Part shown: positions 10,579 through 56,565 of the stretch, piece after piece | Numbering within the stretch: the stretch's first letter is position 1 | How the letters are laid out: each line of letters starts with the position of its first letter | Source of the DNA: Enoplolaimus lenunculus | Taxonomy: Eukaryota | Reading direction: 5' to 3' | NCBI GenBank assembly: GCA_030248215.1 | Contig: JASANG010000621.1 | Location: forward strand, 1 to 64,000 | Length of the DNA: 64,000 bases | Program-made: the position numbers and the translations under genes | Notes under the pieces: model-generated | Database searches by the model: none | Told to the model about the DNA's origin: nothing | The model's input: only the letters and a program-made list of their open reading frames with translations

Positions 10579-12542
10579 TGTAACACAGCGAACCCAGAAA
10601 TTCAAATCGATCGGCACTCCGGGGAACGACTTCCTAACTAAGTTCGAAGGTTACCAAAGCAAACACAAACGGCTAATTCTCTTACAATAAAAAATGACAC
10701 GGGGCGCCTACTGAATCAAATCAAGTTGATAACCCCACGCCCAAAATAGACTCCGTACACAATATTCAGAAAACTCCGCAGAGCACAAATCGTGCTAACG
10801 CAAAATTCGCTACGTACCACTGACGCCCCAAAATTAAATAAATTTGTAAGATTACGGCACCTTTGCAGGGTAGGCTCATAACAACGCACCAAAAATTATC
10901 CTGTGGCACCCTGATTCCACTTCGATACTAGAAATATTCCGAATTAGCACAAAAATAAACCACTGTTTACCAACAAATTTTCCACTAATTTCCAAAAGAT
11001 ACAATTCACGACGAGAAATTTATGCGAACTAGTGCTCACTCACAGCACCGAACCTGTTAAAACTCTCTAAGTGTCGTTAAAAACAAAATAAGTGATTGAA
11101 TAATTTACGGATTCCTTACGGAAATAACTCGTATGCGCGCGCTCTATTGTATACGCAAGTACAACCGCTAAAATTCTCGAACAGACCTCTTGTCTGACAC
11201 CACAAATTCCCAAAATCTATGCACTTATATTTAACGCAAGTTTCTACAAAACTTCCACTGCACCACGATTTCAGTTAAAATGCTACAACTCTAACTCAAA
11301 AATTATCGCACACAGCGGTTCTTAACTAATCTTAATACTTCCCGTACAAACTAAGTAAACGCCTTTAAGCGCTCAACAAAAATCAAAATCGCGCGTCTCT
11401 ATACGTCGCTAAACAATCGGACAGCATATCACACCCGTACAACTCTGAGCCCCCAAACCCAACCTGTTCTACTCTTATATAGTCGTGAACCGAAAGGTTA
11501 GCTGAATTCTAAGAATCTTATACTACATTTTTAAAATTCCTCCAAATTTCTGAAAAACTAATAAATTTTACTTATCTACAGTTTTTCTTACAAATTTCAA
11601 CTTAAAAATTTTGTTAAAATCTAACAAAAACCTGTTTTGTCTAAAAAATCTAGTTTTTAGATGAAAATTTAAACTTTTAAATCGGTTAAAAAATCTAAAT
11701 TATGTTGTTTTGACCCTAGTAATTTATTTTAAAAACAAAATTGATCTTTCAAATCGCATAAAAAGTAAAAAAATCCACTATTTTGACGAAAATCCGTAAT
11801 TTTCAAAACAAAATTTTAGCTAAAAATTTACAAAAATTTACATAAAAACTAAGTTTTGACCAGAATTTATAAATTTCAAAACAAATTTTATTTTTTAAAT
11901 TAAAATTTTAAAATAACTTCTAATATTTTGTCTTCAAATTAAAATTTGCAATCGTTTTAATTCTAGGAATTAAGCCTACCAAAATTTCCAAAAAGGGGAT
12001 AATTTCAGTACTATTTCACAGATATGGAATTTTCTCTGTTATACTATGCTACAAATTGTATCTCGGAAATAAAACCTTGATTTTAAGGTACAAATTTATT
12101 CCTTTTTATGGTTTCAAACATGATGAACCTGGCCTAAAAATTGCAATTATAGCAAGGACAAAACTCAACTAAAACGACTGCAAACAAAAAACTACAATCT
12201 ATCCGCACCGCATAACTCCTGCGCCTACTGTAAACCTAACCCGTGTATAAAAACTAAAAGCATAAAATCGCGGAGGCAAAAAAATATATATTGCTGGCTG
12301 TATAACCCAACAACAACAACAACAATAAACAACAACAACAACAATAAACAACAACAACAATATTACTACAACAACAACAACAATATTACTACAACAACAA
12401 CAACAATATTACTACATGTATGTATGCACACATACAATTGATACACACTACACAAGCATCACTACAGGGTAATAGGTATAAAAAATTTTAAAATTTCGAA
12501 ACGGGGGTATTCTAAGAATTTCAGCTACCCCCCCACTCTACA
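10579..12542 (-). repeat. 3' LTR (1964 bp)
   Basis: Minus strand reads TGTAGAGTGGGGG...GTGTTACA; 10579-10840 and 11434-11830 align to the other LTR; contains a (CAA)n tract at about 12307-12415. Confidence 0.85.
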
Positions 12543-12560
12543 CTCTCCTCACTTTATTTT
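12543..12560 (-). other. Polypurine tract
   Basis: Minus strand AAAATAAAGTGAGGAGAG directly precedes the TG of the 3' LTR. Confidence 0.8.
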
Positions 12561-14315
12561 GAGCGAGCTCCTGCGAGTTAACTTAAACTACTTCCTAAAA
12601 CAAAAAAAACTACCACAACCCCAAAAATATACTTACCAATCACAGTCGAAGCCTTTGGACCATGATCCGAGGCGCTTCACCAAATATTGGCCTGTCATTC
12701 GATAGCTATCGTCAACCGCTTAACCATTAAAATGTAGAGTTAATCAACTGAACTTCCTAAAATAAGAATTCCTAAAAATACAACAACAATAATATTAAAT
12801 TATAGACAAAATTTAGCTTTGCGTTTAAGAAATTGGTGGCTTCCTTACGGAAAGCAATGTTTCCGAAAAATAACAGAACACTATTTACACACCGAATCCA
12901 AGTATATTTTAACTCACCAGCTGTTCGCTAAAAAATGCCTAAAATACATCGACGATTACACAACATAATATTTAAACTGTACACAAAGAATTAAGTTAGA
13001 TAAGTAAGGAAACACATTGGCTGCCTTACGGCTACAGTAATTTAATTTTCAATAAAGTAGCTAATGACTCAAACTAAATTTTTTTTTTTTTTAGTTTTAA
13101 GTTTCTCTTCCTTTCATTTCTTTTGTTTTGTTTTATTAATTTACAATTGTACATACCCGTATTAAAGCTCACGCTAGGTAAGCCAAACTTACTATGTCTA
13201 TACATTCCAACACTTTTTAAGACTTGTTGGTATAAAAATTACATGATCACCCTGAAATAAAATACAATGTATATGATTAACATTAAAGCGATATATACAG
13301 CATTGGTAATATTTGACAAAATTATGGCTTCCTTGCGGTCATAAATGTTTTTGTAATAACTAAAACATTGCATTTTACATAGCTAATCGACGTGTTATAA
13401 TATGTTCGAAAACAATAACTAAAATACCATCTACAAAAGTACATTAATTACTCTCTGTACATTGAGGCACATGGAGTAAATAATAAGTAAACAAATTGAC
13501 TCCCTTACGGGTTCAAATACCAGATATGAGAAAAGAAAATAAAAAGTATTTTTATTTAGTTTTATTTATTTAATTTTTTTAATCTTACGCCCAAAGATAT
13601 ATATTTTTTTACATATTTTTTTGTTTATTTTTGTTTTGCATATAATTTACAAATATGTACATAGTTGCTTTACACCACGTAATCGAGGATAGATACTTAC
13701 AGTCACTGCAAGTTGATAAGCTTTCTAATTACACTAATCAAAACAATTAATCCAGACACAATAAAAATTCCTCACCATGCTGCCATTGTTCGCCCACATA
13801 TCTTTGCCGGATCACCCATTGACTGTCTCATATAAGCTGCTTTTCCGATGATTGCTAAAACAGGTATTTTAAAATATAAAAACATCTAGTTCATAACATG
13901 AAACATAAGTTAAAGAACGTAGGGCTCCCTTGCGGGCATATGCTACAACTGAACTCACCATTGAAACGAGATAAAAATTTTGCATATCAGTACCAAAATA
14001 GACTCATTGCAGATTTATGCATGAGTGATTAGTAATTGTTCGGTCAACTTAGAAAGCTGTCTGTGCGCACGCCATTGTTTGAAACACTAAAATGGTAGTA
14101 TATGGAAATAGGCAACTCTATGATTTCCTTACATACTCATTAATTGAATTGTATGGCTCCCGTATGGGTAAAACGCCTATAGTATTTAAATGGCTAAGCT
14201 AGTTCAAACATAGGCAAAACCTGTGTTGTTATTTTTTTTATTATAAAACTCAAACTGAAATTATCCTTACAATAACATGGTAACACTGTGATTAGTGACT
14301 AACATTAACGAAGCA

Positions 14316-14903
14316 CTATTCAACATAGCAGTACACAATGTTAAAAACATTCGGTCGCGAAATCAAAGGTGCTCGTGGTATTAGTTTTTTTCTTGAAACA
14401 AGTTTTTTATTACTTAATTCTACCCGCAAACGCATTAGCATATGACCCATTTCATTTCTTCCTGGCCAGCTAGCTGGACATGCGAACTGTGGATCAAATT
14501 TAGTTACTCCAGTTCCCCAAAATGAATCATATTTATTAGTTTCTGCTATAAGGCAAGTTCCTGTATCAACCAATGCATCTCTAAGCGTAGGGTGTTGACA
14601 AAACTTCGCATAAACCGCTTTTTCCATAACACGGAGCTTGTCTTTCTTCCACCCTGCAATCAATCGCCTACCTACAAAAGTTCTTAACATTAATTTTTGT
14701 TCAATGGCCATCAGTCGTTTTGCTTGTTTAGGATCACTAGTCTTTAATATTTCTTTAGCTAACTGCAACCTACCAAGTTCTTTGGCTTTAGTGTATTGGT
14801 AGAAATGCTCCACTGATGCATAACCTTGGCCATCAATTACAATCGGAACTAAATATAAGTTTGAAAACACATGAGATGACCCGATAAACGGAACTATAAT
14901 CAT
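14316..14903 (-). CDS. NADAR/YbiA-family hydrolase (195 aa from first ATG; frame open to 15002)
   Basis: Family motifs FSNLY..PIVIDG..YASVEHFYQ..KA, W....LRVMEKAVYAKFCQHPTLR..L..TG, IAE...D.FWGTG and W.GRN.MG.MLM.LR. Confidence 0.9.
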   Translation of the reverse strand: MIIVPFIGSSHVFSNLYLVPIVIDGQGYASVEHFYQYTKAKELGRLQLAKEILKTSDPKQAKRLMAIEQKLMLRTFVGRRLIAGWKKDKLRVMEKAVYAKFCQHPTLRDALVDTGTCLIAETNKYDSFWGTGVTKFDPQFACPASWPGRNEMGHMLMRLRVELSNKKLVSRKKLIPRAPLISRPNVFNIVYCYVE

Positions 14904-15161
14904 GTTATTTGTGCTTAATCTACGAGGAAAGGTATAAACTAACCTAATGGAATATATTGAGAATATGGCCAACCAGCGTTGATGGTAAATCCGCACAGCC
15001 AAATCCTACCGCAACCTCCAGTGAAATTTATTGCAGTTAATGGAATTAAGCAACAGTTGAGATTAGAGCAGCTGTTGAAATGTCCAGAATATAGGCACGC
15101 GAAGCGTAATTATTATGCGATGACTAATGTTATGTTAGGGATATATAGGCAGTAATATAGT

Positions 15162-18100
15162 TTATCGCGATGCTGGTAATGGATTAGCTAAATTAATCCG
15201 CATATGTATGAACCGTTTTACTGCCGGAGCCATTGGCTCAATCCAGGCGTTCGCTTCGCTACACTCTCTAATAGACTCACGGACCAGAGGCTGATCAAGG
15301 AAGTGCAACGTGTTGCATACAAAGAAATTAGCTTTTCTGGCCCGCGTAATAGTAACGTTCACTCGCCGATACTCAGATAAGAAGCCTAGCGGGTGTGGCT
15401 GACCCGCTGCGTCTAATGATGGGAGTGACCGGACGAGAGAAATGATCATATAATTTCTCTCGTCCCCTTGCCAGACATTAGCACATCCGATTTTTATGTC
15501 TGGATATTCCCTACCTACCATCTGTTTGAGCAGTTCCGTCTGAATTGCATATGCTGCATTGATTCCAATATCCGCCGGTGGCACCCCACCCTGGTGTACC
15601 AGCAGCTCAACCAACTTAGTTACCGCCATCAGTTCATGTCTATTGTACAGACTCACACCATGGTACGCCTGTTGCCCTTCGATATGCCAGATCACAATGG
15701 GTTGCCCAAAGGGGATTTGGCGAACGCTAGGCCAGTCGGTGTGTTGCAACCACTGGTCAGCGGAACAAAGCAAGGGCGTTTCAGTATACACCACGCGATT
15801 TGGCGGTTCCAGTAGTGCTGGCACTGAACGGTAATTTTCACGTAGTTGTATTACTCGGCAGTCAGTACTGTTTTTCGCTAATGTCAACAATAACTCCATC
15901 CCTGATTCTTCCGCGCCGAATTGCCACAAAACCCTGTTGGTGACATATGCCGGTAGCTGGTGCACGTCACCCATCAAGATAACTTGACCGGCCACTGCTA
16001 ACGGTAGAACCACCGACATGCGCGGTAAGTCCACTGAGGCGGCCTCATCGATTGCTATTACGTCGAAAACGCCATGACCGTAATTGGGCTCGTTTTTACA
16101 ATGATGAAATGCGTCTAAATTGTTCACAATGTCCATAATAGCCATATCCATGGTGCACACAATGATTTTATGATATAACAAAGCACCAGATGACTTAAGT
16201 TCCCGCTGCCCGTCTTGTTCGGTGGTGTTAGGATCGCTTCGCGTCGCGCAGTACGGCTGTAACACTGGATCAATGAGATTCATGTCGTAGTTGCGCCGTA
16301 GGTAGCGCACGACGACTCCGGGTGGTATGACCTCGTTGTTACTAAGGGACTGTAAATTTTGAACCAGTTTTAGCGCGAGAATATTTGCAGCAGCGTTGGT
16401 GCTTGTGACACACAAAAAACGCTTCTCTGGATTGCTCCATGACAATGCGGAAAGAATGCGGGCAAGGGTGCTGGTTTTTCCTGTTCCGGGAGGTGCGCGA
16501 CAAAGACTAACTTTTACACCCTGAATCAGTGCGGTAAAAACTTGTGACTGGTTATAATTTAACCAGTGTTGTACATACTCGTCAGTCGTTCTGGTCGTTC
16601 GCCACTGTATGGGTTTCTGATTCAGTTCATTCCTAAGGCCACAAAAAAGCAAACCATACCACGACCTCCAGGCGGCAAAGAAACGTTGTCGAAATTGTAT
16701 ACGGCGGCTGTTCGCCAGGACTTGAGCATCAGCGGTCGGTTCGACAGACGCTGATGACGTGGATGATTGCTCCGAAGTGTCAGGCATTTCAATATCCCCT
16801 TCCGGTTGCTGCGGTAAACTCGGAAGCTGTGGCTGCTCGATCACACAGTTTAATAGTGAAATTAAATATTCCAGTGCAGGACCCATCATTGGAACCAATT
16901 GAACGTCTCGTAAGTTTCGAAGGTTGGGACCATCATAGAATATGTTTCGCGTTCCTTTGTTCAGTTTGATGACGACCATGGTGTGATTGATGTTAATAGG
17001 CTGTGAACCGACTACTGCGACGACTATCTTGACTTTCCAGTCCGATTGTACTAAATTAGCCAGGCGCGTGAGTCGAAGGTTGCGAAATTCGTTGGTGTCC
17101 ACTGTAACCGTCAAGAACATGGAATCGGGTGGCGATTTCTCAAACTCGTATAAATCGGAGCTTCCGCTATTCGCAATGGTTTCGAAATCACTAGCTACAG
17201 TTGGTGATACCGTAGTCACCGTCGCCTTTGGAGGGTCGTCTTCCTCGTACTGAACCTGGCCTAATAATTCTGCAAGTACGCGGTGAGGCAAATTGTTAAA
17301 GGTTACAGGTCGAGTCGGGTCAAGGATTGCCAGGATATCGTTCTTATTAGGTGTACTAGGCAGAGGCTCTGGTGCATCTGCCGCCACCAGCCGGTGATAA
17401 ACCGGGCGTTCGACCAATGTCTGAGCTGGTGCTATGGCGAACTGATACCAGATTTCAAAGTATGGTGATAGGTGCGGTATAGTTATCTTGGTTGGTTTCA
17501 AACAACGATTCACAGTTGCAGGGTCTTTTCGCTCGTTCGGTACGCCAAGAGCAGATTGTGGAACCAGCGACAGGTGCCCAGCCTGCTGTTCTGCACTCGA
17601 TTTACGAATCAGCGCTTGCAAGGCCTCATCAATTTTCTCATCGAGATATAAGTCGCGGAAATCCCATTGGATTATCGTCGTGAACGGGGCAAATTTGTTT
17701 ACTCGGCGACGTGATTGATACTGAACCCACATTTGTAGCTCGTAGTAGTGTAACCCAAGCCGACCCTCACCGGAAATGGTCACGTGAAATGTGGGTGATT
17801 GGTTACGTGCACGGGGCATTACGGGACTAAATACAACGCCGTCCGGAACGATACAGTTTGGGGTACGTGGTATAAACAGTTGAAAGGGCTGCCGATCCGT
17901 AGTGGTAGCGTCGAATAAAAGAGTGGATACCTGGTCAAAGTCCGACAGTCCTTGGATGACTGGCAATGCTGGAGCTTCAGGCGCCCAAGGTGCGCCGAGA
18001 TGAAAACTGGCCTGTCCATTGTCTGCTCCAACACATTCAATCAACACCTGAGCACCATACATCGAGTTTTTAAGCTCAGTGATGCTGCCGATCCTGCGTC

Positions 18101-18542
18101 TTTCAATCCACTTCTGGTGTTCAACCAATGCTACCCCCACCGGACTAAATCGAAATTTCTGCACTTCAATGCTGACCATATGAAACGGAGTCCACAAATG
18201 ACTGGGGCCAAATATAACCGTTCGGCATACAGGACATAAAGTCATTGGACTCTGGGGCAAATTCTTAGGCCAAGCTACGTACTGGAGCTGCTCTGCTAAT
18301 CGCTCCCAAAGCGCATGATCTAGTGGACTGGAATCGTCTGTTAAACCCAATTCGCATAGAGCTGGGCGCAGAGCATCAATAGGTAAATAGGCCGAAAGAC
18401 AGTTCAGTGCTGCGGATTGGCTGTAGGGGTGAAGCGTCTCGCGAATTAAAGATGTAGCAACGAGATTGGACAAAGCCGGAGGAATGCCAAGTCGAGCACT
18501 AAACTCCACGACGGGGTTAGGGCTACCAGCAGCAGAATTCAT
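15162..18542 (-). CDS. Upf1-like superfamily 1B helicase (1126 aa, intronless)
   Basis: Walker A APPGTGKT, Ia TSTNAAANIL, Walker B IDEAA, III GDVHQLP, LRENYRS, YNRHE, V WQGDERNYMIISLVRS, VI RRVNVTITRAR. Confidence 0.92.
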   Translation of the reverse strand: MNSAAGSPNPVVEFSARLGIPPALSNLVATSLIRETLHPYSQSAALNCLSAYLPIDALRPALCELGLTDDSSPLDHALWERLAEQLQYVAWPKNLPQSPMTLCPVCRTVIFGPSHLWTPFHMVSIEVQKFRFSPVGVALVEHQKWIERRRIGSITELKNSMYGAQVLIECVGADNGQASFHLGAPWAPEAPALPVIQGLSDFDQVSTLLFDATTTDRQPFQLFIPRTPNCIVPDGVVFSPVMPRARNQSPTFHVTISGEGRLGLHYYELQMWVQYQSRRRVNKFAPFTTIIQWDFRDLYLDEKIDEALQALIRKSSAEQQAGHLSLVPQSALGVPNERKDPATVNRCLKPTKITIPHLSPYFEIWYQFAIAPAQTLVERPVYHRLVAADAPEPLPSTPNKNDILAILDPTRPVTFNNLPHRVLAELLGQVQYEEDDPPKATVTTVSPTVASDFETIANSGSSDLYEFEKSPPDSMFLTVTVDTNEFRNLRLTRLANLVQSDWKVKIVVAVVGSQPININHTMVVIKLNKGTRNIFYDGPNLRNLRDVQLVPMMGPALEYLISLLNCVIEQPQLPSLPQQPEGDIEMPDTSEQSSTSSASVEPTADAQVLANSRRIQFRQRFFAAWRSWYGLLFCGLRNELNQKPIQWRTTRTTDEYVQHWLNYNQSQVFTALIQGVKVSLCRAPPGTGKTSTLARILSALSWSNPEKRFLCVTSTNAAANILALKLVQNLQSLSNNEVIPPGVVVRYLRRNYDMNLIDPVLQPYCATRSDPNTTEQDGQRELKSSGALLYHKIIVCTMDMAIMDIVNNLDAFHHCKNEPNYGHGVFDVIAIDEAASVDLPRMSVVLPLAVAGQVILMGDVHQLPAYVTNRVLWQFGAEESGMELLLTLAKNSTDCRVIQLRENYRSVPALLEPPNRVVYTETPLLCSADQWLQHTDWPSVRQIPFGQPIVIWHIEGQQAYHGVSLYNRHELMAVTKLVELLVHQGGVPPADIGINAAYAIQTELLKQMVGREYPDIKIGCANVWQGDERNYMIISLVRSLPSLDAAGQPHPLGFLSEYRRVNVTITRARKANFFVCNTLHFLDQPLVRESIRECSEANAWIEPMAPAVKRFIHMRINLANPLPASR

Positions 18543-18940
18543 AATTAAAGAGCGTTGATAATTACGGCGCCTTTACAGGCAAAATGTCGCTGCTAAACTC
18601 GTAATGTTACTGTTGTTGATATATGATGACTATGGGTCCCTTACGGGTAAAACATTGCTGCAGCCAGCAGTACATAACTTTGACAGTTGAAGGTCGATGA
18701 TAATAAAACGTAACAACTATGGATCCCTTACGGGTACACAGCGCTGCCACAAGCAACCATATTAATAGCAGTTGAATGCTGATATTATTGCTACTACTTT
18801 TAATACGTAATAATAATAATAATAATGTAATTTGACAGTTACGGGTCCCTTACGGGTTATAACTACTTTGTTTATTTCAAACGACACGACATCGTGCGTA
18901 GTCCCGATCGCCAATGACATTAATGCTATGGAAATTGTGA

Positions 18941-21900
18941 TTACAACGGAAAATGGCTAGAGCCACGAGCGCGTAAATTATACCGATGCATTGCCCGAGG
19001 TACGGGCGCAGTGGTTTCCTGGTGCTCCTGTTCCCTTGCATCAATGTCACTAGATGCCGTTTCCATAGCAGAGTCGTTACCGTTTGATACATACTGCAAT
19101 TCATGATTGCTGGATAAACCGGGATTTTTATCTACTTCTAATCCGTTCTCAATATCTACGTCCATATTTGCCTTCGTACTGCAGGTACCGGTTTCATCTT
19201 GACGTAATTCAGGTACATAAGGACCATAAAAAGGTTTAATGCGTTCTACATGCACCCTTTTATGTTGCTCCTTAGGGTTAGTTATGGATTGCAAAACAAC
19301 ATCAGGAAATACTAACTCTATGATTTCATAAAGACCGTGCCATTCTTGTCCTAATTTCTTAGTTTTTCCTTTCTTTTGAAAAGGCACGTGCAATAGGACC
19401 TTTTGTCCCTCAAAGAAATGCGGTTCCGCGGCACGACGATCATGATAAAATTTCATGTGATCTTGGGCTGACTGTATGTTTTGCTTAGCCAACGCCCATG
19501 CTGCTTTAAGGGTAAGTTGCAAATCCCTAAAGCAATCTTCTTCATCTAAGTAATTGACGTTACTAATTGGCAATGCTACATCAATTGGCAGCCGTGGTTG
19601 TCTCCCATAAACTAATTCAAAGGGGCTAAGCCGTGTAGATTCGTTAACACTTACTCTATAAGCAAAACAAGCAAACGGAACGAACTCATCCCAAGTGCGT
19701 TGAGCACTGTCTATGTATTGAGAGACCATGTTCATTAAGGTACGATTTATTCGTTCCACCACCCCATTGGTTTGGGGTCGATAGGGTGTTGTAAAAACTT
19801 TTCGGGTTCCTGTAATTTTACAAATTTGGTCAACTAATTCGCTTCGAAAATTAGGTGCATTGTCACTAATTAATTCACATGGGGCTGAATGGCGACAAAC
19901 TACCTCAGTCATAAACAATTTTGCAATAGTAGTGGCTTTTTGATCAGGAGTGCAAATGGCCTCGGGATATTTTGTAAAACGATCAATAAAAATTACCACG
20001 TATTTGTTCCCATTATAGGTTTGGGGTAATGGGCCAAGAACATCCACATGATATGAAAAATTGGGCTGCGTAGTAGGAATTGGATTCAATGGTGCCTTAG
20101 GCCTGGCCGGTCCAGTTTTACGCTTACTGCACTCGATGCAAGCCTTGCACCAATTTACTACGTCACGGTACATCCCATCCCAAAAATACTTGGGTAATAA
20201 CTTTTGATATGTCTTGGCAACACCAAGGTGTTGTCCACCAACAACATCATCATGATGTGCTGATAGTAATTCTTCACGCATAGAGAAAGGAACAACTAAT
20301 TGTTCCCAGAGTACACCGGGTCGATATTTGGGTATAGGATAATGATGGTACAAAACTCCATTTTTTACTACATAACGTGGCTGGATTAATGCAAAGTGCG
20401 AAGCCAGCTTTGCATCATCCGGGTTTTTACCAAATTCAATATATTCCTTTAAAGCCTTAATCTCTGGGTCCTGCTCTTGTTTTTCCGCAAACGGAATAGT
20501 TGATGGTAGGTCCTGCTTGTTGGAAGTTTCACTTAAGGCAACTGCGTATGCAAACTTAATATCTTCCTCATCAGAACCTTCTTCTAATTTAGAAATTTCA
20601 GTACGAGAAAGGGCATCAACATGCGACATATTTTTACCCGCTCGGTGTTCAACATTAAAATCGTATTCACTTAAAGCAAGTGCCCAACGCTGTAATCTTC
20701 CCGATGCATTCTTATTAGTTAATAACCATCGAAGGGCTGAGTGATCAGTTATTATAGTCACATGCTGTCCGTATATATAATTACGAAAATACTTCATAAA
20801 ATAAACAACAGCTAATGCTTCCAATTCAGTAGTGGTGTAATTCCGTTCAGCTTTTTGAAGCAAACGACTACCATAAGCAATAGGATGGGCTCTGCCCTCG
20901 TTATCTTTTTGAGATAACACAGCTCCAATTGCCTTACCGCTAGCATCTGTTTCCAAAATGTATGGCTTGCTGGGATCGGCTATTTGCAAAATTGGAGGAG
21001 ACATAAGTTTAGATTTTAATAATTGAAATGCTTTTTCAGCCTCTGAATTCCATTTAAAAGGTTTCAAGGTGCTAGTAAGTTGACTAAGTGGCTTAGCAAT
21101 TGCTGCGAAGTCTTTTATAAAACGACGGTAATAACTGCAAAACCCCAAGAAACCTCGCACACCAGTAATATCATTCGGTATAGGGTAATGTTCAACTGCT
21201 TCAATCTTTTTCGGATCTGGCTTCAAGCCTTCAGCAGAAATAATATGACCTAAATATGGAACTTCTTTTCTTAAAAAGTTACATTTAGCTGGTTTAACTT
21301 TAAGACCGACATCCCTTAATCGTTCAAATACAAGACGCAAGCGTCTAATGTGCTCGTCAAAAGTTTCAGAAAACACGCATATATCGTCTATATAGATAAG
21401 GCAGACACGCTCAACTAATCCACGAAGGGTGGCCTCCAGTGTACGTTGAAAAGTAGCAGGAGCGTTGCATAAACCAAAAGGCATTTTAGTAAATTGATAC
21501 AAACCAGCTGGGGTAATAAAAGCAGTTTTCTCAATTGAATCAGAAGCCATAGGGACTTGCCAATATCCTGATATTAAATCCATAACACTAAAATACTTTG
21601 CTTTCCCTATACACTCCAGTAAATCATTAATATTCGGAAGTGGAAAACAATCCTTCTTAGTCACGGCATTTAATTTTCGGTAATCAATACAAATGCGCAA
21701 AGACTTGCCGTCTTTCTTTTTAAGTACAACCATTGGACTAGCCCAGGGGCTTGTTGAGGGCTCAATGATTCCGTAACGTAGCATGTTGCCTAACTCTGTA
21801 TCCACCTTATCCTTAGATTGAAAAGGCACCCGATAAGGTCTCTGCTTAATAGGCACTGCATCCCCAGTGTCAATTGAATGTTCAACTACTGATATAGTTC

Positions 21901-24900
21901 CACAATCGTAATCATGCTTTGCGAAAACATCGTTAAATTCCAAAAATAATTCAATCAACTTTGACTTTTCGATTCCCGAAATTTCAGACTCCTCTAATTT
22001 TAGATCAGCTATCAAATCAAAATGTGGTTGACAACTAACAGATTGTAAGTTCAATACAGTAGGTAAAACACAAGTATCTAAGGGTTCTATTCGACCAACA
22101 GTCATGCCCTTATACAGCCGAACGGGACAATTCGACATATTAAGTAATCGCAAAGGAATAACTAAGTTATCCGCATCACTTAATATTAATTCAACTGTGT
22201 TTAAACCGTATAACTGAATAAGCTTATAATTTGGTTCAAAATACACATCACCCTCATGTCCAAACCCTTTTACTTCGCAGGGTATAAGCACCTCTGATCT
22301 TGAAGGAATAAGTGTAGTATCTGGCAAGAGTACATTTTGGCTTGACCGATATCCCATCTTTAACTGCATTTTTCCAAGCTTAACAATGCCTGTTGCGTAA
22401 TCTAGACTTATAGTGCCAAATTGTCGTAGTAAATCAACCCCTAGTATTGCTGGGTGGGCGCATTCATCTGATACATACACATGAAAAGGTAGGGATTTGG
22501 AACCTATTTCAATTTGTACTTTAATAGCACCTTTCAGGGGTAATGCATGACCAGTAACTCCAACAGCGGTGGTGGCGGGTACTGGAACCAGACTAGTTTC
22601 GGGTTTATTCAATTTTCGAAAAGTTTCTGATGACATAACAGTAATATTACTTCCAGTATCGATAACTGCTCGTACAGGTATATCATTCATGTAAATTTCA
22701 ATGTCCGAAAGAGAGGGTCCTAAAGTCAAAACAGTCTCCGCTACGGTATGACTCGGAGAAAGGCTGGTTGAAAACTGTAATGCACGTTTCCGTTTGCTAC
22801 ATAAAAATTTTGATGGTCCAATAACAGTTGAATGTATAGGCAATTCCAACGTTTCAGTTTCAGGGGAAGTACATATTACTTCCACAGGGGTTGACCTTTC
22901 TTGTCCATAAGATTTACAACAGCAACGCAAACACTTAAACCATTTGCCATACCAGGCGTATATAACACATATACCCACTACCAACATGACCAACCCGACA
23001 GCTATATAACTTAATAAATCGCTATAGGGTAAATTGAAATCAGCACTAGGTGTAAAAGACAAAAGCTCCCTTTTTAATCGGGTACGAGTCAAATTAGACT
23101 GATACTCTACGTTTTCTAAGCTTCCCCACACTGGCGGTGGCACTACGTCTTGATGTAGAGTGAAATTGTATTGAACATCAGGTGAAATTTCAAAGTTAAG
23201 AGCGGGTCTAGAGGTCGACATAAGCACGCGGTCTCCAACAATCAGCATACTAAAATTTTCAAAAGGCATAAACATAACCCCGCGCTCCGGTACACGCATA
23301 GTCTCAATTACAGATGAGGAGACCAATTTTTTAGTCCTTGTGAGCTTGACAGTTGGTTCCGAAGTACGCAAAAGTAATCCAACCCGAGTGGTTTCAATAT
23401 GGGTGCCTGCAAACATTTGTTTAACTTCCATTGCACATGTATTATTATGCACTACGGCTTGGCGCATTCCTCTAAAACAGCTGTCCGCTTCGCTAGTTGG
23501 CAAAGCTTCCATCCCACAGTACCATAAACCAATACGCTTGTCACAAGCTTCGGACTTTACTTCGTGATAATACCCCTTACTAAACATACGAGCATAAGTT
23601 ACAAACTTAGGCAAAGCTAATCGGGCAATTATTTGTTTTGAAGGAATGTTAAAACCGACGTTTATAACCTTCATAAGCGGCAACACGTTCTTAATTCGTA
23701 TTAGGGGGATTTCCAAAATTATTCCAAATTTTGTTTCTCGAATATCTAGTAGCACGGGATAAACCTTAACAAAGTGGTAGAATAATCCGGGATCATGTAT
23801 GTATACTGAATTTCGCAATGTTGGCTCCTGTTTAACAAGCTTTTTAATTTGAGACGCAGACAGAATTGCGACAGATAAGCGACCGCTATCACTAGCAAGG
23901 ACTAATGCATCCACTACTTTACGTACTCCATTTATAAACTGATTTGATTGAGAAATAAAATGCGAAATCGTTACCGATTCTGTTAAACTGCAGGTCATTG
24001 TAATTCGGGTTTGTTCTACATATTTCTGTATCTCATGGGTTATTGCGAAAACTCGCTGTTGGTTAATATTCAGTTTATGAATTGCCTCCGAATTTTCAGT
24101 GATTTCGTCATTCAAAAGTCGAACACTTTTCTGGAGGGCCAAAATTTTTGGTTCCAAATGTGACAACTTAATACTATTGGCAATTCCAAGTCCGGTGCCC
24201 ATGATCGAAGTCAAACCAGTCAAAAGCAGGGGGACAAAGCGGCGATTACGACCCGAAGTAACAAAACTACAAGTGAATGGCTTTTTCTCACACATGTCTC
24301 TCATTAGCTCTTCATAAAATGCAGAGTCGATGGTATCCTCATAGTTATTAGCCAAATCCGAAAGTGCCTGTTTCTTAATCATGCTAAATAAACGCTGTTG
24401 ACCAGTGCAATTACAAAAAGTAGGTGTACCACCTTGAAAAACAAGAGGAGAGCATGGCTTAATTCGGTCTTGTCCAGCATGCACAACTACAGGCAGGTAA
24501 ATGGATTCACTTGCGGTTAACACTAGACCCTCAGGTATAAGCCCAACCCCAACAGAAGGAAAAATTTTTGGTTGTAATTGATGTAATGTTTGCGTTAAAC
24601 TAGAATCAACACGACCCGTTAAACTAAATATGAGTGCAATCACACAACAAAGTAAAATATTCCATGGCTTAAGTGGAGGAACTTTGCACCTACTTGATCG
24701 TCTAGGACAGTTACTTCGAACCGGTGGTTTATCTGTAACAGCTTCATTCAAATTTAAAGAAGCAGGTTCAGTTTGGGTAAATTTAGCAACATGATGTGTA
24801 GCCTGGATGGCTCCGACAAAATTGGGAAACGATTTTTCCACTAGGAGGGCATTTTGACTACGCAAAGTAGCAAGCTCTTTCTTAAGACGATCAATTTCTT

Positions 24901-26104
24901 GCTTAGAATCGCATCCAGAATTAACAGCTTTTGCATCATTAGATACTAGAGTAGTAGCTACAACGGCTTTGTTAGGCGGGACTGGTGATAAAGTTGGTAA
25001 ATTTGGGATATTAGGCCGCGCAGGGCGGTTAAAGTTCGATGCCGGAAAATTTGGCCGATAAGTCGACCGTCCAAAATTATTTTGAGTTTGGAGTCTGTTA
25101 TTCCGAGGAAAATTTCCGTTACGTAACAAACAGGCCATTGCTAAATGTCCAACTTTCCCACAATTATAACACTTCGGACCGCGAGGGGAAAAATTTTGAG
25201 CCAAATCGGGACGTGGATTTTGAAAGTTTCGATTTGGTGGGCCCCTATTTGGTGGACCTCGGTATCCGTTAGAAGGTTGGGGTCTGTTCCGTGGCTCAGG
25301 ATGCCTAAAGGTGTTTCTGCGCATGTTCTGTATAAGCTGCTTTTGATTATTTGCCAGCAGCTGGACTCCCCGAGCGAGCGTATGCAAAGTCTGCTTTGGA
25401 GCAGGCACGGACATGTTCAAAGGATCAACGCCTGTCGGTTTTCCACAGAGTAAAGACTGCATATCTAGGCGCTGAGCTAAGTCCTCCGCTTCCTTAAGCG
25501 TTTTTGGCATATCCCGAAAAACTTCTAGCTTAGCTTCAGTTGGAAGTAAACCGCCGAAAAATCTATGTATAACTCTACGGTCAAACGCGGCGTTGTCCAA
25601 ATTAGGATAAACACTTTTACAAGCATTCTTAATACCCTTTAAATAAGCTGCAACACTTTCACCAGGCAGCTGATGTCGCTGCTCAAGCGCTGCTTCATGG
25701 TACATAGTCCACTCAGTGGTTGTCAATTGGGCCTCTAAAGCCGGTACTAAATCAGTAAAACGGCGCTTAGATTGTTCAGGTACTCGCTCATATGCATCCT
25801 TAGCACGATCTTTTAAATAGGCAGGCAACACCTTAAGTTTCATATCATCATCAATTAAACGGGCATTACAATAAGTATTAAAAGTATCAATCCAACTTTT
25901 AAAATCAGACCCGGTTAAATCTCCCCGAAAAAATGTAATTGATAAATCAGGTTCAGTACCCAATCTTACACGTTGGGATATTAAATCAAAATCGTCACTT
26001 AATCCTCTTAAGCCATCATCTACACGATTAGCAAGATCTTTCACAACAGCATCTAGCTGAGCTATGTTCCTAGTTATATTTTCCATGTTTGGGTTTTGTA
26101 ACAC
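18941..26104 (-). CDS. Gag-Env-Pol polyprotein (capsid, CCHC knuckle, class I fusion glycoprotein, protease, RT, RNase H, integrase)
   Basis: In order: CYNCGKVGHLAMAC; hydrophobic WNILLCCVIALIFSL; RNRR/FVPLLLTGL; TM YIAVGLVMLVVGICVIYAW; VIDTGS; YIDD; ETDASG; HHCC zinc motif and DDE core (DVLGPL, ISDNAP, GVVER). No stop or frameshift. First ATG is at 26086 and the frame is open further upstream. Confidence 0.95.
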   Translation of the reverse strand: MLQNPNMENITRNIAQLDAVVKDLANRVDDGLRGLSDDFDLISQRVRLGTEPDLSITFFRGDLTGSDFKSWIDTFNTYCNARLIDDDMKLKVLPAYLKDRAKDAYERVPEQSKRRFTDLVPALEAQLTTTEWTMYHEAALEQRHQLPGESVAAYLKGIKNACKSVYPNLDNAAFDRRVIHRFFGGLLPTEAKLEVFRDMPKTLKEAEDLAQRLDMQSLLCGKPTGVDPLNMSVPAPKQTLHTLARGVQLLANNQKQLIQNMRRNTFRHPEPRNRPQPSNGYRGPPNRGPPNRNFQNPRPDLAQNFSPRGPKCYNCGKVGHLAMACLLRNGNFPRNNRLQTQNNFGRSTYRPNFPASNFNRPARPNIPNLPTLSPVPPNKAVVATTLVSNDAKAVNSGCDSKQEIDRLKKELATLRSQNALLVEKSFPNFVGAIQATHHVAKFTQTEPASLNLNEAVTDKPPVRSNCPRRSSRCKVPPLKPWNILLCCVIALIFSLTGRVDSSLTQTLHQLQPKIFPSVGVGLIPEGLVLTASESIYLPVVVHAGQDRIKPCSPLVFQGGTPTFCNCTGQQRLFSMIKKQALSDLANNYEDTIDSAFYEELMRDMCEKKPFTCSFVTSGRNRRFVPLLLTGLTSIMGTGLGIANSIKLSHLEPKILALQKSVRLLNDEITENSEAIHKLNINQQRVFAITHEIQKYVEQTRITMTCSLTESVTISHFISQSNQFINGVRKVVDALVLASDSGRLSVAILSASQIKKLVKQEPTLRNSVYIHDPGLFYHFVKVYPVLLDIRETKFGIILEIPLIRIKNVLPLMKVINVGFNIPSKQIIARLALPKFVTYARMFSKGYYHEVKSEACDKRIGLWYCGMEALPTSEADSCFRGMRQAVVHNNTCAMEVKQMFAGTHIETTRVGLLLRTSEPTVKLTRTKKLVSSSVIETMRVPERGVMFMPFENFSMLIVGDRVLMSTSRPALNFEISPDVQYNFTLHQDVVPPPVWGSLENVEYQSNLTRTRLKRELLSFTPSADFNLPYSDLLSYIAVGLVMLVVGICVIYAWYGKWFKCLRCCCKSYGQERSTPVEVICTSPETETLELPIHSTVIGPSKFLCSKRKRALQFSTSLSPSHTVAETVLTLGPSLSDIEIYMNDIPVRAVIDTGSNITVMSSETFRKLNKPETSLVPVPATTAVGVTGHALPLKGAIKVQIEIGSKSLPFHVYVSDECAHPAILGVDLLRQFGTISLDYATGIVKLGKMQLKMGYRSSQNVLLPDTTLIPSRSEVLIPCEVKGFGHEGDVYFEPNYKLIQLYGLNTVELILSDADNLVIPLRLLNMSNCPVRLYKGMTVGRIEPLDTCVLPTVLNLQSVSCQPHFDLIADLKLEESEISGIEKSKLIELFLEFNDVFAKHDYDCGTISVVEHSIDTGDAVPIKQRPYRVPFQSKDKVDTELGNMLRYGIIEPSTSPWASPMVVLKKKDGKSLRICIDYRKLNAVTKKDCFPLPNINDLLECIGKAKYFSVMDLISGYWQVPMASDSIEKTAFITPAGLYQFTKMPFGLCNAPATFQRTLEATLRGLVERVCLIYIDDICVFSETFDEHIRRLRLVFERLRDVGLKVKPAKCNFLRKEVPYLGHIISAEGLKPDPKKIEAVEHYPIPNDITGVRGFLGFCSYYRRFIKDFAAIAKPLSQLTSTLKPFKWNSEAEKAFQLLKSKLMSPPILQIADPSKPYILETDASGKAIGAVLSQKDNEGRAHPIAYGSRLLQKAERNYTTTELEALAVVYFMKYFRNYIYGQHVTIITDHSALRWLLTNKNASGRLQRWALALSEYDFNVEHRAGKNMSHVDALSRTEISKLEEGSDEEDIKFAYAVALSETSNKQDLPSTIPFAEKQEQDPEIKALKEYIEFGKNPDDAKLASHFALIQPRYVVKNGVLYHHYPIPKYRPGVLWEQLVVPFSMREELLSAHHDDVVGGQHLGVAKTYQKLLPKYFWDGMYRDVVNWCKACIECSKRKTGPARPKAPLNPIPTTQPNFSYHVDVLGPLPQTYNGNKYVVIFIDRFTKYPEAICTPDQKATTIAKLFMTEVVCRHSAPCELISDNAPNFRSELVDQICKITGTRKVFTTPYRPQTNGVVERINRTLMNMVSQYIDSAQRTWDEFVPFACFAYRVSVNESTRLSPFELVYGRQPRLPIDVALPISNVNYLDEEDCFRDLQLTLKAAWALAKQNIQSAQDHMKFYHDRRAAEPHFFEGQKVLLHVPFQKKGKTKKLGQEWHGLYEIIELVFPDVVLQSITNPKEQHKRVHVERIKPFYGPYVPELRQDETGTCSTKANMDVDIENGLEVDKNPGLSSNHELQYVSNGNDSAMETASSDIDAREQEHQETTAPVPRAMHRYNLRARGSSHFPL

Positions 26105-26296
26105 AAGGTGGGAGTTACTATCGAGGGGTTCAGAAAATTCAGAATCGTCGTCGCTGGATTCTAAGACACCAGTACTGCGTAATTTGTATCGAGCCGTTAT
26201 TTTTACAAAACAAACTGAACGTTCTTTAAAAGGGTAAAGGTTAGCACTCGGACAAAATTTTCGACCAAAGCTCGTTTACCGGTTAAGAAAACTGGT

Positions 26297-26314
26297 ATCT
26301 CGGTGGGACCTCCA
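26297..26314 (-). other. Primer binding site, tRNA-Gln
   Basis: TGGAGGTCCCACCGAGAT lies 2 nt from the 5' LTR end and is complementary to the metazoan tRNA-Gln 3' end (ATCTCGGTGGGACCT-CCA). Confidence 0.88.
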
Positions 26315-26316
26315 AA

Positions 26317-28323
26317 TGTAACACAGCGAACCCAGAAATTCAAATCGATCGGCACTCTGGGGAACGACTTCCTAACTAAGTTCGACGGTTACCAAAGCAA
26401 ACACAAACGGCTAATTCTCTTACAATAAAAATGACACGGTACGCCTACTGAATCAAATCAAGTTGATCTTCCCAAGCCCAAAATTGACTCCGTACACAAT
26501 TCAGAAAACTCCGTATAGCACAGATCGTGCTGACTCAAAATCCACTACGTACTACTGACGCCCCAAAATAAAATAAGAAATGCAAAATTATGGTCCCTTT
26601 ACAGGTGCAATTCCAAATAAATTGCTAAATAATGACTTCTCGGAAATAGTATAGTTCTACTCCAAACACAACGACTCCCCTTAAGTAATCAAGTCAGCCT
26701 AATATCAGAATTTTAGGCCAGGAAATTAAAAAAGAATCAAATAGTTCAACACCACCAATATACACTTCTCGATAATTACCAGTTTCAACTTAGGGTCCAA
26801 AAATATGCGAAGTACTCTTTGCACGAAAAAAATCAAAATTGCGTAACTCTTGCAAAAAAATAAATCAAGTAATTTAATAACTACGGCTTCCTTACGGAGC
26901 AAAGTCGTAGCTGCGCGCAGTTTGCTATAAATCACCAAGGAAGTACCTAAATTTGCTACAATTGTCCCACCAGCAATTTTTTTCAACAAAATTTAACTTA
27001 AGTAGGCAGAAAATTTCTCGCCTACTACGGGCTCCCAAATACTCAAAATATCCTCTACGCGTACTATTCACCAAGTATCCCACGACACAACTTAACGCGC
27101 AACCGTAAATTTTATATAAACACAGGCACCCTAAGTTCAAAACAATTCGCATAAATCGCCGGTACTAATTCTCCGATAAGAAATTGGGCAGCGGTTCGCT
27201 CCCGTACAACTCTGAGCCCCCGAACCCAACCTGTTCTGCGCTTATATATTCGTAAACCGAAAGGTTAATTGAGTTCTAGGAATTTTATGATAAAATTTTA
27301 AATTCTTTCAAAAATGTTGAAAAACCACTAAATTTAACTTAAAAAAGATTTTCTTAAAATTTTCTAACTCAAAATTTTGTTAAAATCGAACAAAAAGCTG
27401 TTTTGTCTTAAAAATTCAGTTTTTAGAAGAAAATTTAAACTTTTAAAATAGCTCAAAAATCTAAAGTATGTTGTTTTGACAGAAGTAATTTATTTTAAAA
27501 ACAAATTTGATCATTCAAATCGCATAAAAAGTTGAAAAAAGTACTATTTTGACGAAAATCCGTAATTTTCAAAACAAAATTTTAGTTAAAAATTTTAAAG
27601 AGTTCTTAGAATCCTAATGTTGTGGCTTCGAATGGTTGTTTCAAGGTTCCTACAATTCTCAGAACTGTCATTCTTTAACTTCTTAAAAAGGGGCTACTCG
27701 ACCACCATTCTGGACTTAGATTACAATTTTATACTACAAAATATTAAATAACATGTCCTAGACTTCTCGCAGTAGTGCATATCCATCAGGAAGCTGATAT
27801 TGATATCCGACTATAGACTAAGCCTGATTTACCCAATACCCCGCTTATTTTTACGCAACTACCACATAATCCGACAAATTCAATTTCTCACATATGTGAG
27901 CATTCATACAATTCGATATTCTACATGAAAGCTAAAGTAATGAGCAATAATTACACTACTTGCCTACACAACACTGCACTTGCAAGTGTTCCAAAGTGCA
28001 CTGGAATAAATATACACACAAACAGATGTATGAACAATTGTTTAAGTCCTTTCAGTAGGTCCAATAGCAATATAACAGCACAAATCTTCCCAATAGCACC
28101 AACCTCAACTGTACACAATAATTAAAACACACGCACATATACAAATGTATAATACATGAACACACTAATTGTATATGTATACACAATATGTATACACATA
28201 TATATTGCACCATACACATCAATAAAATGGGATAAACTTAAAAAATTTCCTCCGACGTTACAAAAAGGGGGTTTTAAAGTCACACCAGGGTATCCTAAAA
28301 ATTCTAAAATCCCCCACGCTACA
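26317..28323 (-). repeat. 5' LTR (2007 bp)
   Basis: Minus strand reads TGTAGCGTGGGGG...GTGTTACA; abuts the PBS; aligns in blocks to 10579-12542. Confidence 0.85.
27200..27250 (-). promoter_or_regulatory. Putative LTR core promoter (TATA box and initiator region)
   Basis: TATATAAG at 27241-27248, mirrored at 11474-11481, followed ~30 nt downstream by GCTCAGAGTTGTACGGG conserved in both LTRs. Confidence 0.6.
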
Positions 28324-29485
28324 ATATACCGTACGGTAATAGCATATTAGCAGTCAAATATTCAATGTTTTCATCTCAGACTCAGCTTTTGTAGTAGCTG
28401 CCTATAAAGCCCACTCTCAACTGTAGTGGACAGCATCACAATTTTGTATGATTACGTGGAAGTTGAAAAGGTTAATAGTAAATTATTTTGCCGGAAAACT
28501 CAAGGGAATGAGCTCGAAAAATTAGCAAATTAGTTGGGTGAATTTTGGGGAGATTTTTGGAAAATTTAAAGGGTTTTGAATAGGAAAACAAAATGCGCGA
28601 GAAAAAATAATCCAGAATACGAGGAATAACAAATATAGGCACAGTGTACTTAAGGCGAAACGACACATTTATAAACTAGTAAAATCGACTTTAATCAAAC
28701 AGACACAAAGTAACTAAGGGCGGGGAACTGTGGTTGCAGGGCAACCGTAAGACTCCTGCATGACAAAGTTAAAATAGAAATTTTAATGTCATGTTTCTTC
28801 AACCCGCCTCATATCATATAAATCAAAAGTAGAATTTGATATTTGAAATTTTAAGTTTATGTTTTCCGGTGTAGCATATAATAACTTGTAACAACTCCCC
28901 TGAAAACTCACTCTTTCAATATTATGTATGTTACGAATACAACGTAACGGCTGTTGTTTATGTTACGGTAGAGTAATGAAAAATGTAAAAACATTTTTTA
29001 GTCAAATTGACATCATGAAGCGCCGAATTTAACTTCGAATATCCTGGTGTTTTTCATATCCGGATGTCCTGTGCCCATCTACGTAATTTATAACTAATTT
29101 TGAGCGTGAAAATAACAAACCTTTCTTTATTTCTATAACGCAAATAGAAACAGAAGCAGATGCCGATTTTTATCAGAAATATACCGTTGACACTTAGAGC
29201 GCAACACTGCCTTCAGCTCTTAAAACTACAAAATCTTAATTCTACAAAATCTAGGCTACCGTGGGTGGCACACACGACCTTTATAATTAACAAAGCAATG
29301 GTCCTATAATTAAGTTATGTACATGAAGTTTTTCCTAACGCCTCCATTAGCAACTTTTATAAATTTTATCGGAATTTACCTTGCTAGGCTATGAGAGATT
29401 TCGACAAATTTTTGTTATAATTATACATACTGTATGGATTTGTTAATACAGGGCAAATGATAAATTTCTATTGTTAAGGTATATA

Positions 29486-32400
29486 ATGCGTAGATCTATT
29501 CTCACAATTCTTCATTTGGTGATGTTGATAGCAGAAACATTAAGCCATGCCGGTCATCATAAACGCCAACAAAAACTGCTCATTGTTTCGTTCGATGGTT
29601 TCAGATGGAATTTGATTGAGGTACTGTTTTAATTGTTTGTAGCTTGCTGTAATCAGCACTTGTTAAATAAATTGCATGAAATTTTGCATACAAAAGTAAG
29701 CGGTCTTCTTGCTTGTTGGTTGTTGGTGTTGGTACTATACGGTCTGCACGACCCCTGTTTGAAGTTTTGCCAAAGTTAATGACCACGCCGGGAATCGAAC
29801 CTCGGCCCTCTTGCGCTCGAGCCAAGCATGCTACCACTACACCACGCAGTCGTTGCAACAACTTCTTATACCGGTATATGTGCACAGGCATGGCAACTTG
29901 TGCTTTACATACACTTACGTGCACATATACCGACATCCCTCTTTTTTACAGGCGGTCGTCTCGGACCGTGAATACAACTACCCGAATCCATGGGCTTGCT
30001 GTTTGCAGTGCCCATCTCGGTGGGACCTCCATGTTGGTACTATACGGTCTGCACGACCCCTGTTTGAAGTTTTGCCAAAGTTAATGACCACGCCGGGAAT
30101 CGAACCTCGGCCCTCTTGCGCTCGAGCCAAGCATGCTACCACTACACCACGCAGTCGTTGCAACAACTTCTTATACCGGTATATGTGCACAGGCATGGCA
30201 ACATTTGCTTTACATACACTTATGTGCACATATACGGACAGTTGGCACCGTTGCTTGCCGTTAGGTATCTATTTTTACGAATACAAATATTGTTTGCAGA
30301 AACTTCCACGTGTCAACAATTTTACGAGATTTGCTCAACATGGAGGCATGATTGCACCAAACGGTATTAAAAATGTGTTCGTAACCAAAACGTTCCCTAG
30401 TCATTACACAATTGCAACTGGTCTGTACGAAGAATCATCTGGAATTGTGGCAAACAGTTTTTGGGACCCAGACTACCGCAAGGTTGTTCATTTACAAAAG
30501 AATTCAGATCAAAATTTAACGCATCTGTTTCTTGGTGAGCCCATTTGGGTGACTTATATTCGTCAAAAGCATCGTCCTTTCGGAGTTGGATGTTATATGT
30601 GGGTCGGGTGCTCGTTTTGGATTAAGGGTAAGTTAGACGTGTTACTCTTATTAGTATCGGTTTTCGATTTTTGTTGTGATGCTATCCACTATGCTTGCTT
30701 GTACTTTGCTACGCCTAGGATTTGTTAATTGGAGTTTTCTGCGGACTAGGGTTCTTTCTTACCACGCTTCTTTAGGAAGCCAAATGGCCGCTCCGCAGTG
30801 CTTAAGCGTAATTGAATTGTTAAGTAAGGACTCAATTTCGCCTAAGCGTAAAGAACGCAATTCTACTAAAGTCCGGGAGATAAAGACGACTCTGCAAACG
30901 CAACAAGGCCTGCGGAGTGAGAGTTAAGAATTAGGAAAATGAGAGCGAAATAGGAGCCCGGACGATCCAGAAAAAGGGAAAGCTAAGGGAGGGTGATTTA
31001 AAAAATAAAAAGTAAAAACCCTGAATTTCAAGGTAAGATGCCACATGTAATTAGCATTTTAACCGTCTAGCTCTAAATTACCAAATGTTAGCAGGATTTT
31101 AAGAGCGATTACAGAGCAAATAATTGTTCAAGCAGGCGGAATCTAACTGCCGTGTTTCTCTGTCTGAAATAAAGCTAATATATAGGTAAAACGATCATTT
31201 GGTTGGTTAATGCGTAAACAAAACATGAGTTTTCTTTTCGTTTAAACTATACACCCAATTGAGGTTTAGCTTTAAAATGTTGGCTGTTGGGCGTATGAAA
31301 TTGGTTTGGCGCTGCTCGAGATATGTTTTATGGTTAAATCATTTTTTATGTCTGTCCATCGTTTTTCTATTTTTAAGGAATTCATCTTAAATTAAGTCCT
31401 CCATACAGCACTATGGTTCCGTGGCATCAAAGGGTTGACACTGTAATTAACTGGTACAACCACAACGGTATTGATCTCGGTTTATTGTATTTTAATGAGC
31501 CTGACAGCACTGAACACGAATATGGGCCAAACTCGCCTGAGGTGACACGCAAAATGATGGAAATTAACAATTATGTTGGGTATTTGTTAGATCAGGTACA
31601 ATTTAGAGCAGTTATAGTAACAGTAATGATTTTGAAATATGGCCATACAAATATTCTATGATTACAGCCGAGCGTATCTTCTGGTTGAGCGAAGCGTTTT
31701 ATGTTTTGTCGTCGTTGGACGAAAGGCGGATGACCGCCCGACGACAATCTCAGCAACAACTGAGCGGATTTTGAGAAACTTTTTGTTTGAAAGCTTATTA
31801 TCCTGCAGTGATTATCTCGCATTGGGGTTTGAAAATTTTAAGCCGTTCATTAGCTACAGGGTAGTATGCATAATTGGTTAAGCCTGAATTTGGAGTTTTT
31901 ACAGTATTTCACTAATTATTAGGGTTAGAAGCAATCTAATTTGACAGTACTTATATACTTATTACTTTGTGTGGTTAATTTTATTGTTTTCAGTTGGAGT
32001 TCTTTGATTTGGATATCAATATTATCATAATGGCAGATCACGGGTTCACAACTATTGCTGGTGTGACAGACATAACAATTGATCCGCGTCTATTTAGCAC
32101 GACTGTAGAGAAGGATGACTTTTGGCATGTAGAGCCGTTGCCAGGTATCTTAGAGTTACTGCTTGAGCTTATCTAGAAGATGAGTGAAACCAAGAGTGGA
32201 TGATGCCCACCACCTTGCAGAAGAGTGTGCAACTGCTTGGGCTGTGCATGGTATTAAATGTACCAGCACGCGTTGCATTTTTGTTCGACCGCCCTCAATC
32301 GGGAGGGGGGGTTAAGCAAGAGATTAACAATAAAGTATGCTTCAGTACACCTCCCCCCTCATTTAAGGGGGGGGTCAACTATGTTGTTTAATCACACTTG

Positions 32401-33421: not shown

Positions 33422-33454
<33 letters not shown>

Positions 33455-56135: not shown

Positions 56136-56565
<430 letters not shown>

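Follow-up and report, generated by a model that had tools for sequence, protein, structure and literature searches.

The window, by which we mean the whole 64,000-nucleotide stretch of DNA analyzed here, carries a complete TRIM on its minus strand at 29727..30240. The element lies antisense within the first intron of a gene for an ENPP4/5-like phosphodiesterase and ends 59 nt before the acceptor. This host intron (29621..30299, plus strand, GT..AG) is 679 bp long, or 160 bp when the element and one TSD are subtracted. Exon 1 of the gene starts at the ATG at 29486 and meets exon 2 at an in-frame junction; exon matches run from 29498 to 35586, with six exon-like matches corresponding to residues 38-415 of a 439-aa relative. 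The best ENPP matches were unnamed sequences (49-51%), and molluscs, a brachiopod, tunicates, and a frog matched at 39-46%; because the best-scoring named relatives are animals, the host is likely an animal.

On the other side of exon 1 lies a large Ty3/gypsy element (10579..28323, minus strand), which is separate from the TRIM and is considered below as its candidate helper. Two more high-copy repeats (28440-28835 and 28968-29231, whose summed depth reaches 40 and 250 times that of unique flank, respectively) stand between the gypsy element and the ENPP gene. Elsewhere the window holds a 19-20-bp minisatellite at 6642-9400, an 8-bp satellite at 56041-56770, a MITE-like element at 37689-38627 whose inverted arms measure 168 bp, and a 300-bp tandem pair at 46320-46918. 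A Pfam scan of 148 of the 220 short window frames returned only weak TIL (trypsin-inhibitor-like) matches, which were below the Pfam cut-off and fell in two plus-strand frames (51070-51366 and 52704-53174); the Atlas match stayed below 0.9.

Anatomy of the Element

The TRIM is 514 bp long (209-bp LTR, 96-bp internal part, 209-bp LTR) and has the ends TGT...ACA. Along the minus strand it is made up of the 5' LTR (30240-30032), an 18-nt tRNA-Gln primer-binding site (PBS, 30031-30014) that abuts the 5' LTR with a spacer of 0 nt, the internal part, a polypurine tract (PPT) of 12 purines (29947-29936) that abuts the 3' LTR, and the 3' LTR itself (29935-29727). The two LTRs are 98.1% identical, and their 4 differences sit at LTR positions 5, 18, 36, and 38. 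A first-pass annotation of this DNA had described a 209-bp LTR pair with few differences and a perfect TSD, all of which we recovered. Its view that the insertion is recent is borne out by the low LTR divergence (1.9%) and needs tempering in that the LTRs are not identical; the copy is young without being brand new, and the LTR differences fit post-insertion mutation. Element boundaries were set by the LTR pair, and on the plus strand GTTGG flanks both sides (29722..29726 and 30241..30245). Because the sixth flank base differs between the two sides, we take the TSD to be 5 bp, a length measured at this one site, where the left flank is itself GTTGG-repetitive and of low complexity.

We class the element as a TRIM on the basis of its length below 1 kb, its two LTRs, its lack of coding capacity, the PBS and PPT that bound the internal part, and a TSD together with dispersed copies. 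The sole Pfam match in an ORF crossing the element falls in host exon 2, and the internal region does not fold better than its shuffles (z -0.95). A tRNA-derived SINE (SINE2), which consists of a single head-body-tail unit, was ruled out by the presence of an LTR pair, a PBS, a PPT, and TG..CA ends.

Within each LTR lies a tRNA-like unit of 72 nt, counting the discriminator base, at LTR positions 85-156 (minus strand; 30085..30156 in the 5' LTR and 29780..29851 in the 3' LTR). The two units are identical; that of the 5' LTR, with its A box at 30139-30149 and its B box at about 30095-30106, is predicted to act as Pol III promoter and to mark where the transcript begins, and that of the 3' LTR is the predicted R region. 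Upstream, each U3 folds into a hairpin on a 14-bp inverted repeat, which is perfect in the 3' LTR (29872..29932, minus strand; arms 29872-29885 and 29919-29932) and has one mismatch in the 5' LTR (30177..30237, minus strand), so that the earlier description of this repeat holds exactly for the 3' LTR only. The hairpin of the 3' LTR has a predicted energy of -28.3 kcal/mol (z -4.88) and that of the 5' LTR a z of -4.31, and in neither case did any of 200 shuffles fold equally well. In the RNA the hairpin would come directly after the PPT. As a miRNA it was rejected, the Rfam match being far below the gathering score.

Copies in Public Contigs

We surveyed copies of the element by comparing 29200-30031, at 80% likeness, with the contigs of three public DNA runs (X1, X2, and X3), which represent at most two samples from one study and of which the best-matching run is possibly the source of the window. 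In X1 and X2, which come from the same sample, summed contig depth over the LTR was about 8,000-14,000 times that of unique flank, and over the internal part 540-1,700 times, giving an LTR-to-internal ratio of 9-16. Such depths are not copy numbers, since short overlapping contigs inflate them, and we read them only as very many copies with LTRs in excess.

In all three runs loose contig ends with diverse, unrelated flanks were found at both LTR termini (29727 and 29935; agreement 0.36-0.40), which identifies both ends of the 3' LTR as family termini. Among the loose ends listed, the contigs at the two termini numbered 63 and 50 in X1, 56 and 55 in X2, and 37 and 39 in X3. The tRNA segment had a depth equal to that of the remaining LTR, a value that real tRNA genes or SINEs may have raised, and one join skipping about the tRNA segment (29771 to 29853) occurred in 2, 2, and 1 contigs of X1-X3, at single-copy depth. 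The first-pass annotation had staked its reading on the element being neither single-copy nor lacking the tRNA segment in its other copies; what we found is a high-copy family in which contigs cover the tRNA segment no less deeply than its LTR surroundings.

The contigs also bear on individual positions. At acceptor-stem position 4 (29848), about 98-99% of the depth carries the base that makes a Watson-Crick pair, and at LTR positions 36 and 38, the two of the four LTR differences for which the listing gives values, about 99% agrees with the 5' LTR, so the changes at these two positions are private to the 3' LTR of the present copy. Coming from the unique flank, contigs of X1 and X2 enter the LTR for 28 letters, where 31 are needed for a bridging count, and no empty-site join was found among the joins listed, with X3 covering the flank in part and at low depth.

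A further set of loose ends was seen at 29779 (24, 23, and 26 contigs in X1-X3), in which the same tRNA-like head runs on into about 30 nt of other downstream sequence; these contigs could represent a SINE or a sister subfamily of Helenus whose U5 is short. In other collections, relatives defined by a B-box plus Gln-PBS pattern numbered zero in the viral contigs searched. Three metagenome contigs with this pattern were discarded, having neither a tRNA nor an LTR pair and looking like chance matches in coding DNA.

The tRNA-Like Unit

Rfam family RF00005 matches the tRNA-like unit in both LTRs with 46.8 bits (E 8.5e-8), well over the gathering cut-off of 29, and ARAGORN calls both units Ser(CGA). 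The earlier report of a 71-nt cloverleaf-like sequence with A and B boxes and a paired acceptor stem is thus right as to the unit, the boxes, which are intact in both LTRs, and the stem, and it is revised in that the unit is 72 nt with its discriminator base and its cloverleaf has defects. The closing pair of the anticodon stem is a G.G mismatch, and a bulge or mismatch interrupts the T stem. The anticodon is of Ser type, yet the variable loop is short, where a long arm is normal for Ser tRNAs. The A box reads TGGTG, to which the generic A box still fits, and both TGG and GGTTC are present.

We consider the tRNA-like unit a likely Pol III promoter. The main alternative sees in it a passenger, either an old SINE head or a tRNA pseudogene caught in the LTR, with the element owing its transcription to Pol II starting in U3 or to read-through. 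Several features suit such a passenger: the cloverleaf is damaged, the 29779 contigs join a tRNA-like head to other downstream sequence and could be a SINE, and U3 contains a TATAAG. This motif had been noted before, and we confirm its presence, although the distance to the start of the tRNA-like unit is short (19-14 nt upstream of it). Against a passenger, both LTRs have kept intact A and B boxes, most of the family variants listed are found outside these boxes, and the tRNA/U5 part is free of differences between the LTRs, all 4 of which fall in U3 (a post hoc chance of about 0.025-0.06). Taken together, these observations make the passenger reading unlikely. Less likely by far is that the TRIM amplifies a functional tRNA-Ser(CGA) gene, for which the ARAGORN call, the paired acceptor stem, and the canonical-looking anticodon loop might speak, since the G.G in the anticodon stem, the T-stem defect, the short variable loop, a minimum-energy fold that is not a cloverleaf (z -1.17), the absence of a four-T terminator after the unit, and family variants within the anticodon arm all argue against a working tRNA.

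Comparison with Helenus, Ajax, and Cassandra

The first-pass annotation had proposed that the element is a tRNA-based analogue of Cassandra. The anatomy fits this description, but the class is not new, having been published as Helenus or TRIMp3: TRIMs of less than 1 kb with tRNA-derived sequence in their LTRs (Kojima, 2024, Biology 13:119; PMC10886601). Helenus elements are known from fungi, six animal phyla, and Selaginella, and multiple origins have been proposed for them; their sizes range from 311 to 1263 bp, and their LTRs outnumber their internal parts (Table S3 of PMC10886601). According to Kojima, Cassandra is the only experimentally validated TRIMp3, and for Helenus a function of Pol III has yet to be validated (PMC10886601).

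The element described here carries the tRNA-derived LTR sequence that gives Helenus its name and fits Helenus in size and in the excess of LTRs over internal parts. In the part of Data S1 of PMC10886601 available to us, bivalve Helenus consensus sequences have, as judged by eye, the same orientation and placement of the tRNA-like unit. Differences are found in the insertion footprint and the primer. At the one site measured, the TSD of our element has 5 bp, whereas it is 4 bp in every animal row of Table S1 with a value (two rows are n.d.) and 5 bp in fungi and Selaginella (PMC10886601). The primer here is Gln, whereas Helenus primers comprise Lys, Leu, Trp, Arg, His, Ile, Pro, Glu, and Ser (Fig. 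S2 of PMC10886601), a list from which Gln is absent; the terms "Gln" and the PBS motif had 0 matches in the supplement of that study (PMC10886601). In addition, the A box of most Helenus elements is TRGCY (PMC10886601), compared with TGGTG here, and the present element has a strong U3 hairpin as well.

Two other groups invite comparison. Ajax, a TRIM of animals, likewise combines a Pol III promoter in its LTR with a 5-bp TSD, but its boxes are derived from 5S rRNA and its PBS is Leu, where we find a tRNA-type unit and a Gln PBS (PMC10886601). Cassandra shares the Pol III unit in the LTR and an RNA that would start in the 5' LTR and end in the 3' LTR, and differs in being 5S rRNA-derived and restricted to plants (PMC10886601); 5S rRNA had no Rfam match in our element at E values up to 1 in 25000-32000.

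Since two traits of the published animal elements fail here, namely the 4-bp TSD and the listed primers, we file the element as a new Helenus family rather than under a named lineage. It is probably an independent lineage of separate origin. Our literature search found neither a nematode Helenus nor a Gln-primed one, with Repbase and subscription papers outside its scope.

Neighboring Gypsy Element and the Helper Question

The neighboring Ty3/gypsy element, all of whose parts are on the minus strand, has LTRs of 2007 bp (26317-28323) and 1964 bp (10579-12542), a Gln PBS (26297-26314) after a 2-nt spacer, and a PPT before the 3' LTR. One ORF (18941-26104) encodes Gag-Env(F-type)-PR-RT-RH-IN, and downstream of pol lie ORFs for a 1126-aa UPF1-like SF1 helicase with AAA_11/AAA_12 domains (15162-18542) and for a 228-aa NADAR protein (14316-15002). 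Its LTRs are 76% identical over aligned columns, reaching 84-90% in two blocks and barely alignable elsewhere, and no matching TSD could be read in its flanks. The element is probably a recombinant of two subfamilies, and its ORFs are open despite the LTR mismatch. The family is multi-copy in the contigs.

The label Gag-Env-Pol, given to this neighbor earlier, is upheld by the Env-like region (about 22960-24610), which sits between Gag and protease in the one ORF and has 119 relatives, several of them in Gag-Env-PR polyproteins; a profile of 32 sequences matches paramyxovirus-type F0 fusion proteins (class I) with a best E of 1.2e-10. The same Gag-Env-PR order recurs in metagenome relatives. 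An F-type Env between Gag and PR may be an undescribed arrangement, and may be more novel than the TRIM. A word-index search for Env relatives gave no match, the viral contigs searched held no locus related to the neighbor's Pol, whose matches were generic, and a fold of the single Env sequence was unusable (pLDDT 34).

The 3' UTR and LTRs of the neighbor also contain a hairpin motif, CC-GYAA-GG followed by RAGCC, about eight times on the minus strand (at about 11120, 12850, 13031, 13338, 13510, 13935, 14165, and 26897). Three pairs are predicted in it, one of them with compensatory changes, and Rfam returned no match over 10500-14400.

The PBS of the TRIM is the same as that of the neighbor in 18 of 18 nt, as had been claimed, and these are the 2 matches in the window at 2 or fewer mismatches, where 0 were expected (100 shuffles). 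In the available part of the supplement of PMC13524379, the 3' end of tRNA-Gln has a reverse complement identical to the first 12 nt of this PBS. A Gln-primed gypsy family is the most likely helper. That it is specifically the neighboring Gag-Env-Pol family, as the first-pass annotation had suggested, is possible and, in our view, doubtful. The comparison of termini, PBS, and TSD that it had called for shows a common PBS and common TGT..ACA ends, but the spacer of 2 nt in the neighbor contrasts with one of 0 nt in the TRIM, and the neighbor's insertion footprint is unreadable given LTRs of only 76% identity and no TSD. The family does offer open Gag-Env-Pol and integrase frames in multiple copies, and Kojima ties animal Helenus to gypsy elements through a common PBS (PMC10886601). 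Moreover, in the portion of PMC13524379 at hand, Gln priming is rare among env-carrying gypsy elements outside nematode Gag-Env-Pol elements, which make up 8 of 10 Gln rows, these rows being 10 of the 19 Gln elements counted there. Against the neighbor, however, the PBS is the complement of one host tRNA, so that any Gln-primed element has it, and the alignment of the LTRs scored 23 where shuffles averaged 25.7. In the internal part the best score was 27, which 32 of 500 shuffles attained as well; this weak match, located antisense within the helicase ORF, was set aside as chance. Neither the spacers nor the LTRs are decisive, because spacers vary within Helenus lineages and trans-mobilization does not require LTR homology (PMC10886601).

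The zero spacer of the TRIM instead fits nematode elements. As far as the accessible parts of the two sources show, Cer1 has no spacer between LTR and PBS (PMC3315495), and neither do 6 of 8 Gln-primed Caenorhabditis elements, read from table coordinates (PMC13524379). Within the same sections of PMC13524379, the Gln PBS and the Gag-Env-Pol order co-occur mainly in Caenorhabditis. On that basis a nematode host is a weak guess, and the Env type of the neighbor speaks against it. Nematode GAG-ENV-POL gypsy elements and Cer1 thus resemble the TRIM in having, in the material available, the same 12-nt Gln PBS abutting the LTR, and differ from it in being autonomous (PMC13524379; PMC3315495); they represent a candidate type of helper. 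The GAG-ENV-POL elements that Chary and Hayashi (2026) describe in those sections have gB-type Env only (PMC13524379), in contrast to the F-type Env and 2-nt spacer of the neighbor.

Proposed Mechanism and Significance

Taken together, we hold with good confidence that the element is a gene-less, high-copy TRIM of the Helenus type, likely transcribed by Pol III and likely dependent on enzymes from an autonomous LTR retrotransposon that is primed by tRNA-Gln. From the architecture observed, with its PBS, PPT, TSD, and A and B boxes in the tRNA-like unit, and from the dispersal of many copies, we infer the following steps of transcription and mobilization. TFIIIC and Pol III would start near the +1 of the tRNA-like unit in the 5' LTR (about LTR position 85), the unit thereby serving as a promoter and not as a working tRNA. 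Pol III would then read through the TRIM, whose sense strand is without a run of four T, and might terminate in the 3' LTR, at a leaky TTT that follows its tRNA-like unit, or else where the flank has its first T-run. The longest T-run in the sense strand is indeed a TTT, at LTR positions 162-164, and the first flank T-run lies 32 nt past the element; the depletion of four-T runs is not significant, as 1378 of 2000 shuffles were also without one. On such a transcript the tRNA-like part would become the repeated R region. The TRIM RNA would be packaged by the Gag of the helper, primed by host tRNA-Gln, and reverse-transcribed, and the helper's integrase would insert the product with a 5-bp stagger.

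The most far-reaching version of this picture is an independent animal lineage of TRIMp3 and the first in its phylum (possibly the nematodes), Gln-primed, with 5-bp TSDs and thousands of copies, that parasitizes a gypsy family with a paramyxovirus-F-like Env between Gag and Pol and whose Pol III RNA of about 430 nt travels as a satellite in enveloped particles; as a whole this version is a long shot. The type of element is already known, and the value of the finding is to that extent incremental. A probably separate origin within Helenus, where primer, footprint, and tRNA box differ, backs the repeated origins proposed by Kojima (PMC10886601), and the pattern by which animal Helenus elements have 4-bp TSDs would be broken if 5 bp holds in other copies. 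An abundant family of this kind would inflate tRNA gene counts, as one copy already yields two false tRNA-Ser calls by ARAGORN, and would scatter Pol III promoters into introns. The abundance of the TRIM makes it a good subject for a Pol III transcription test of any Helenus element.
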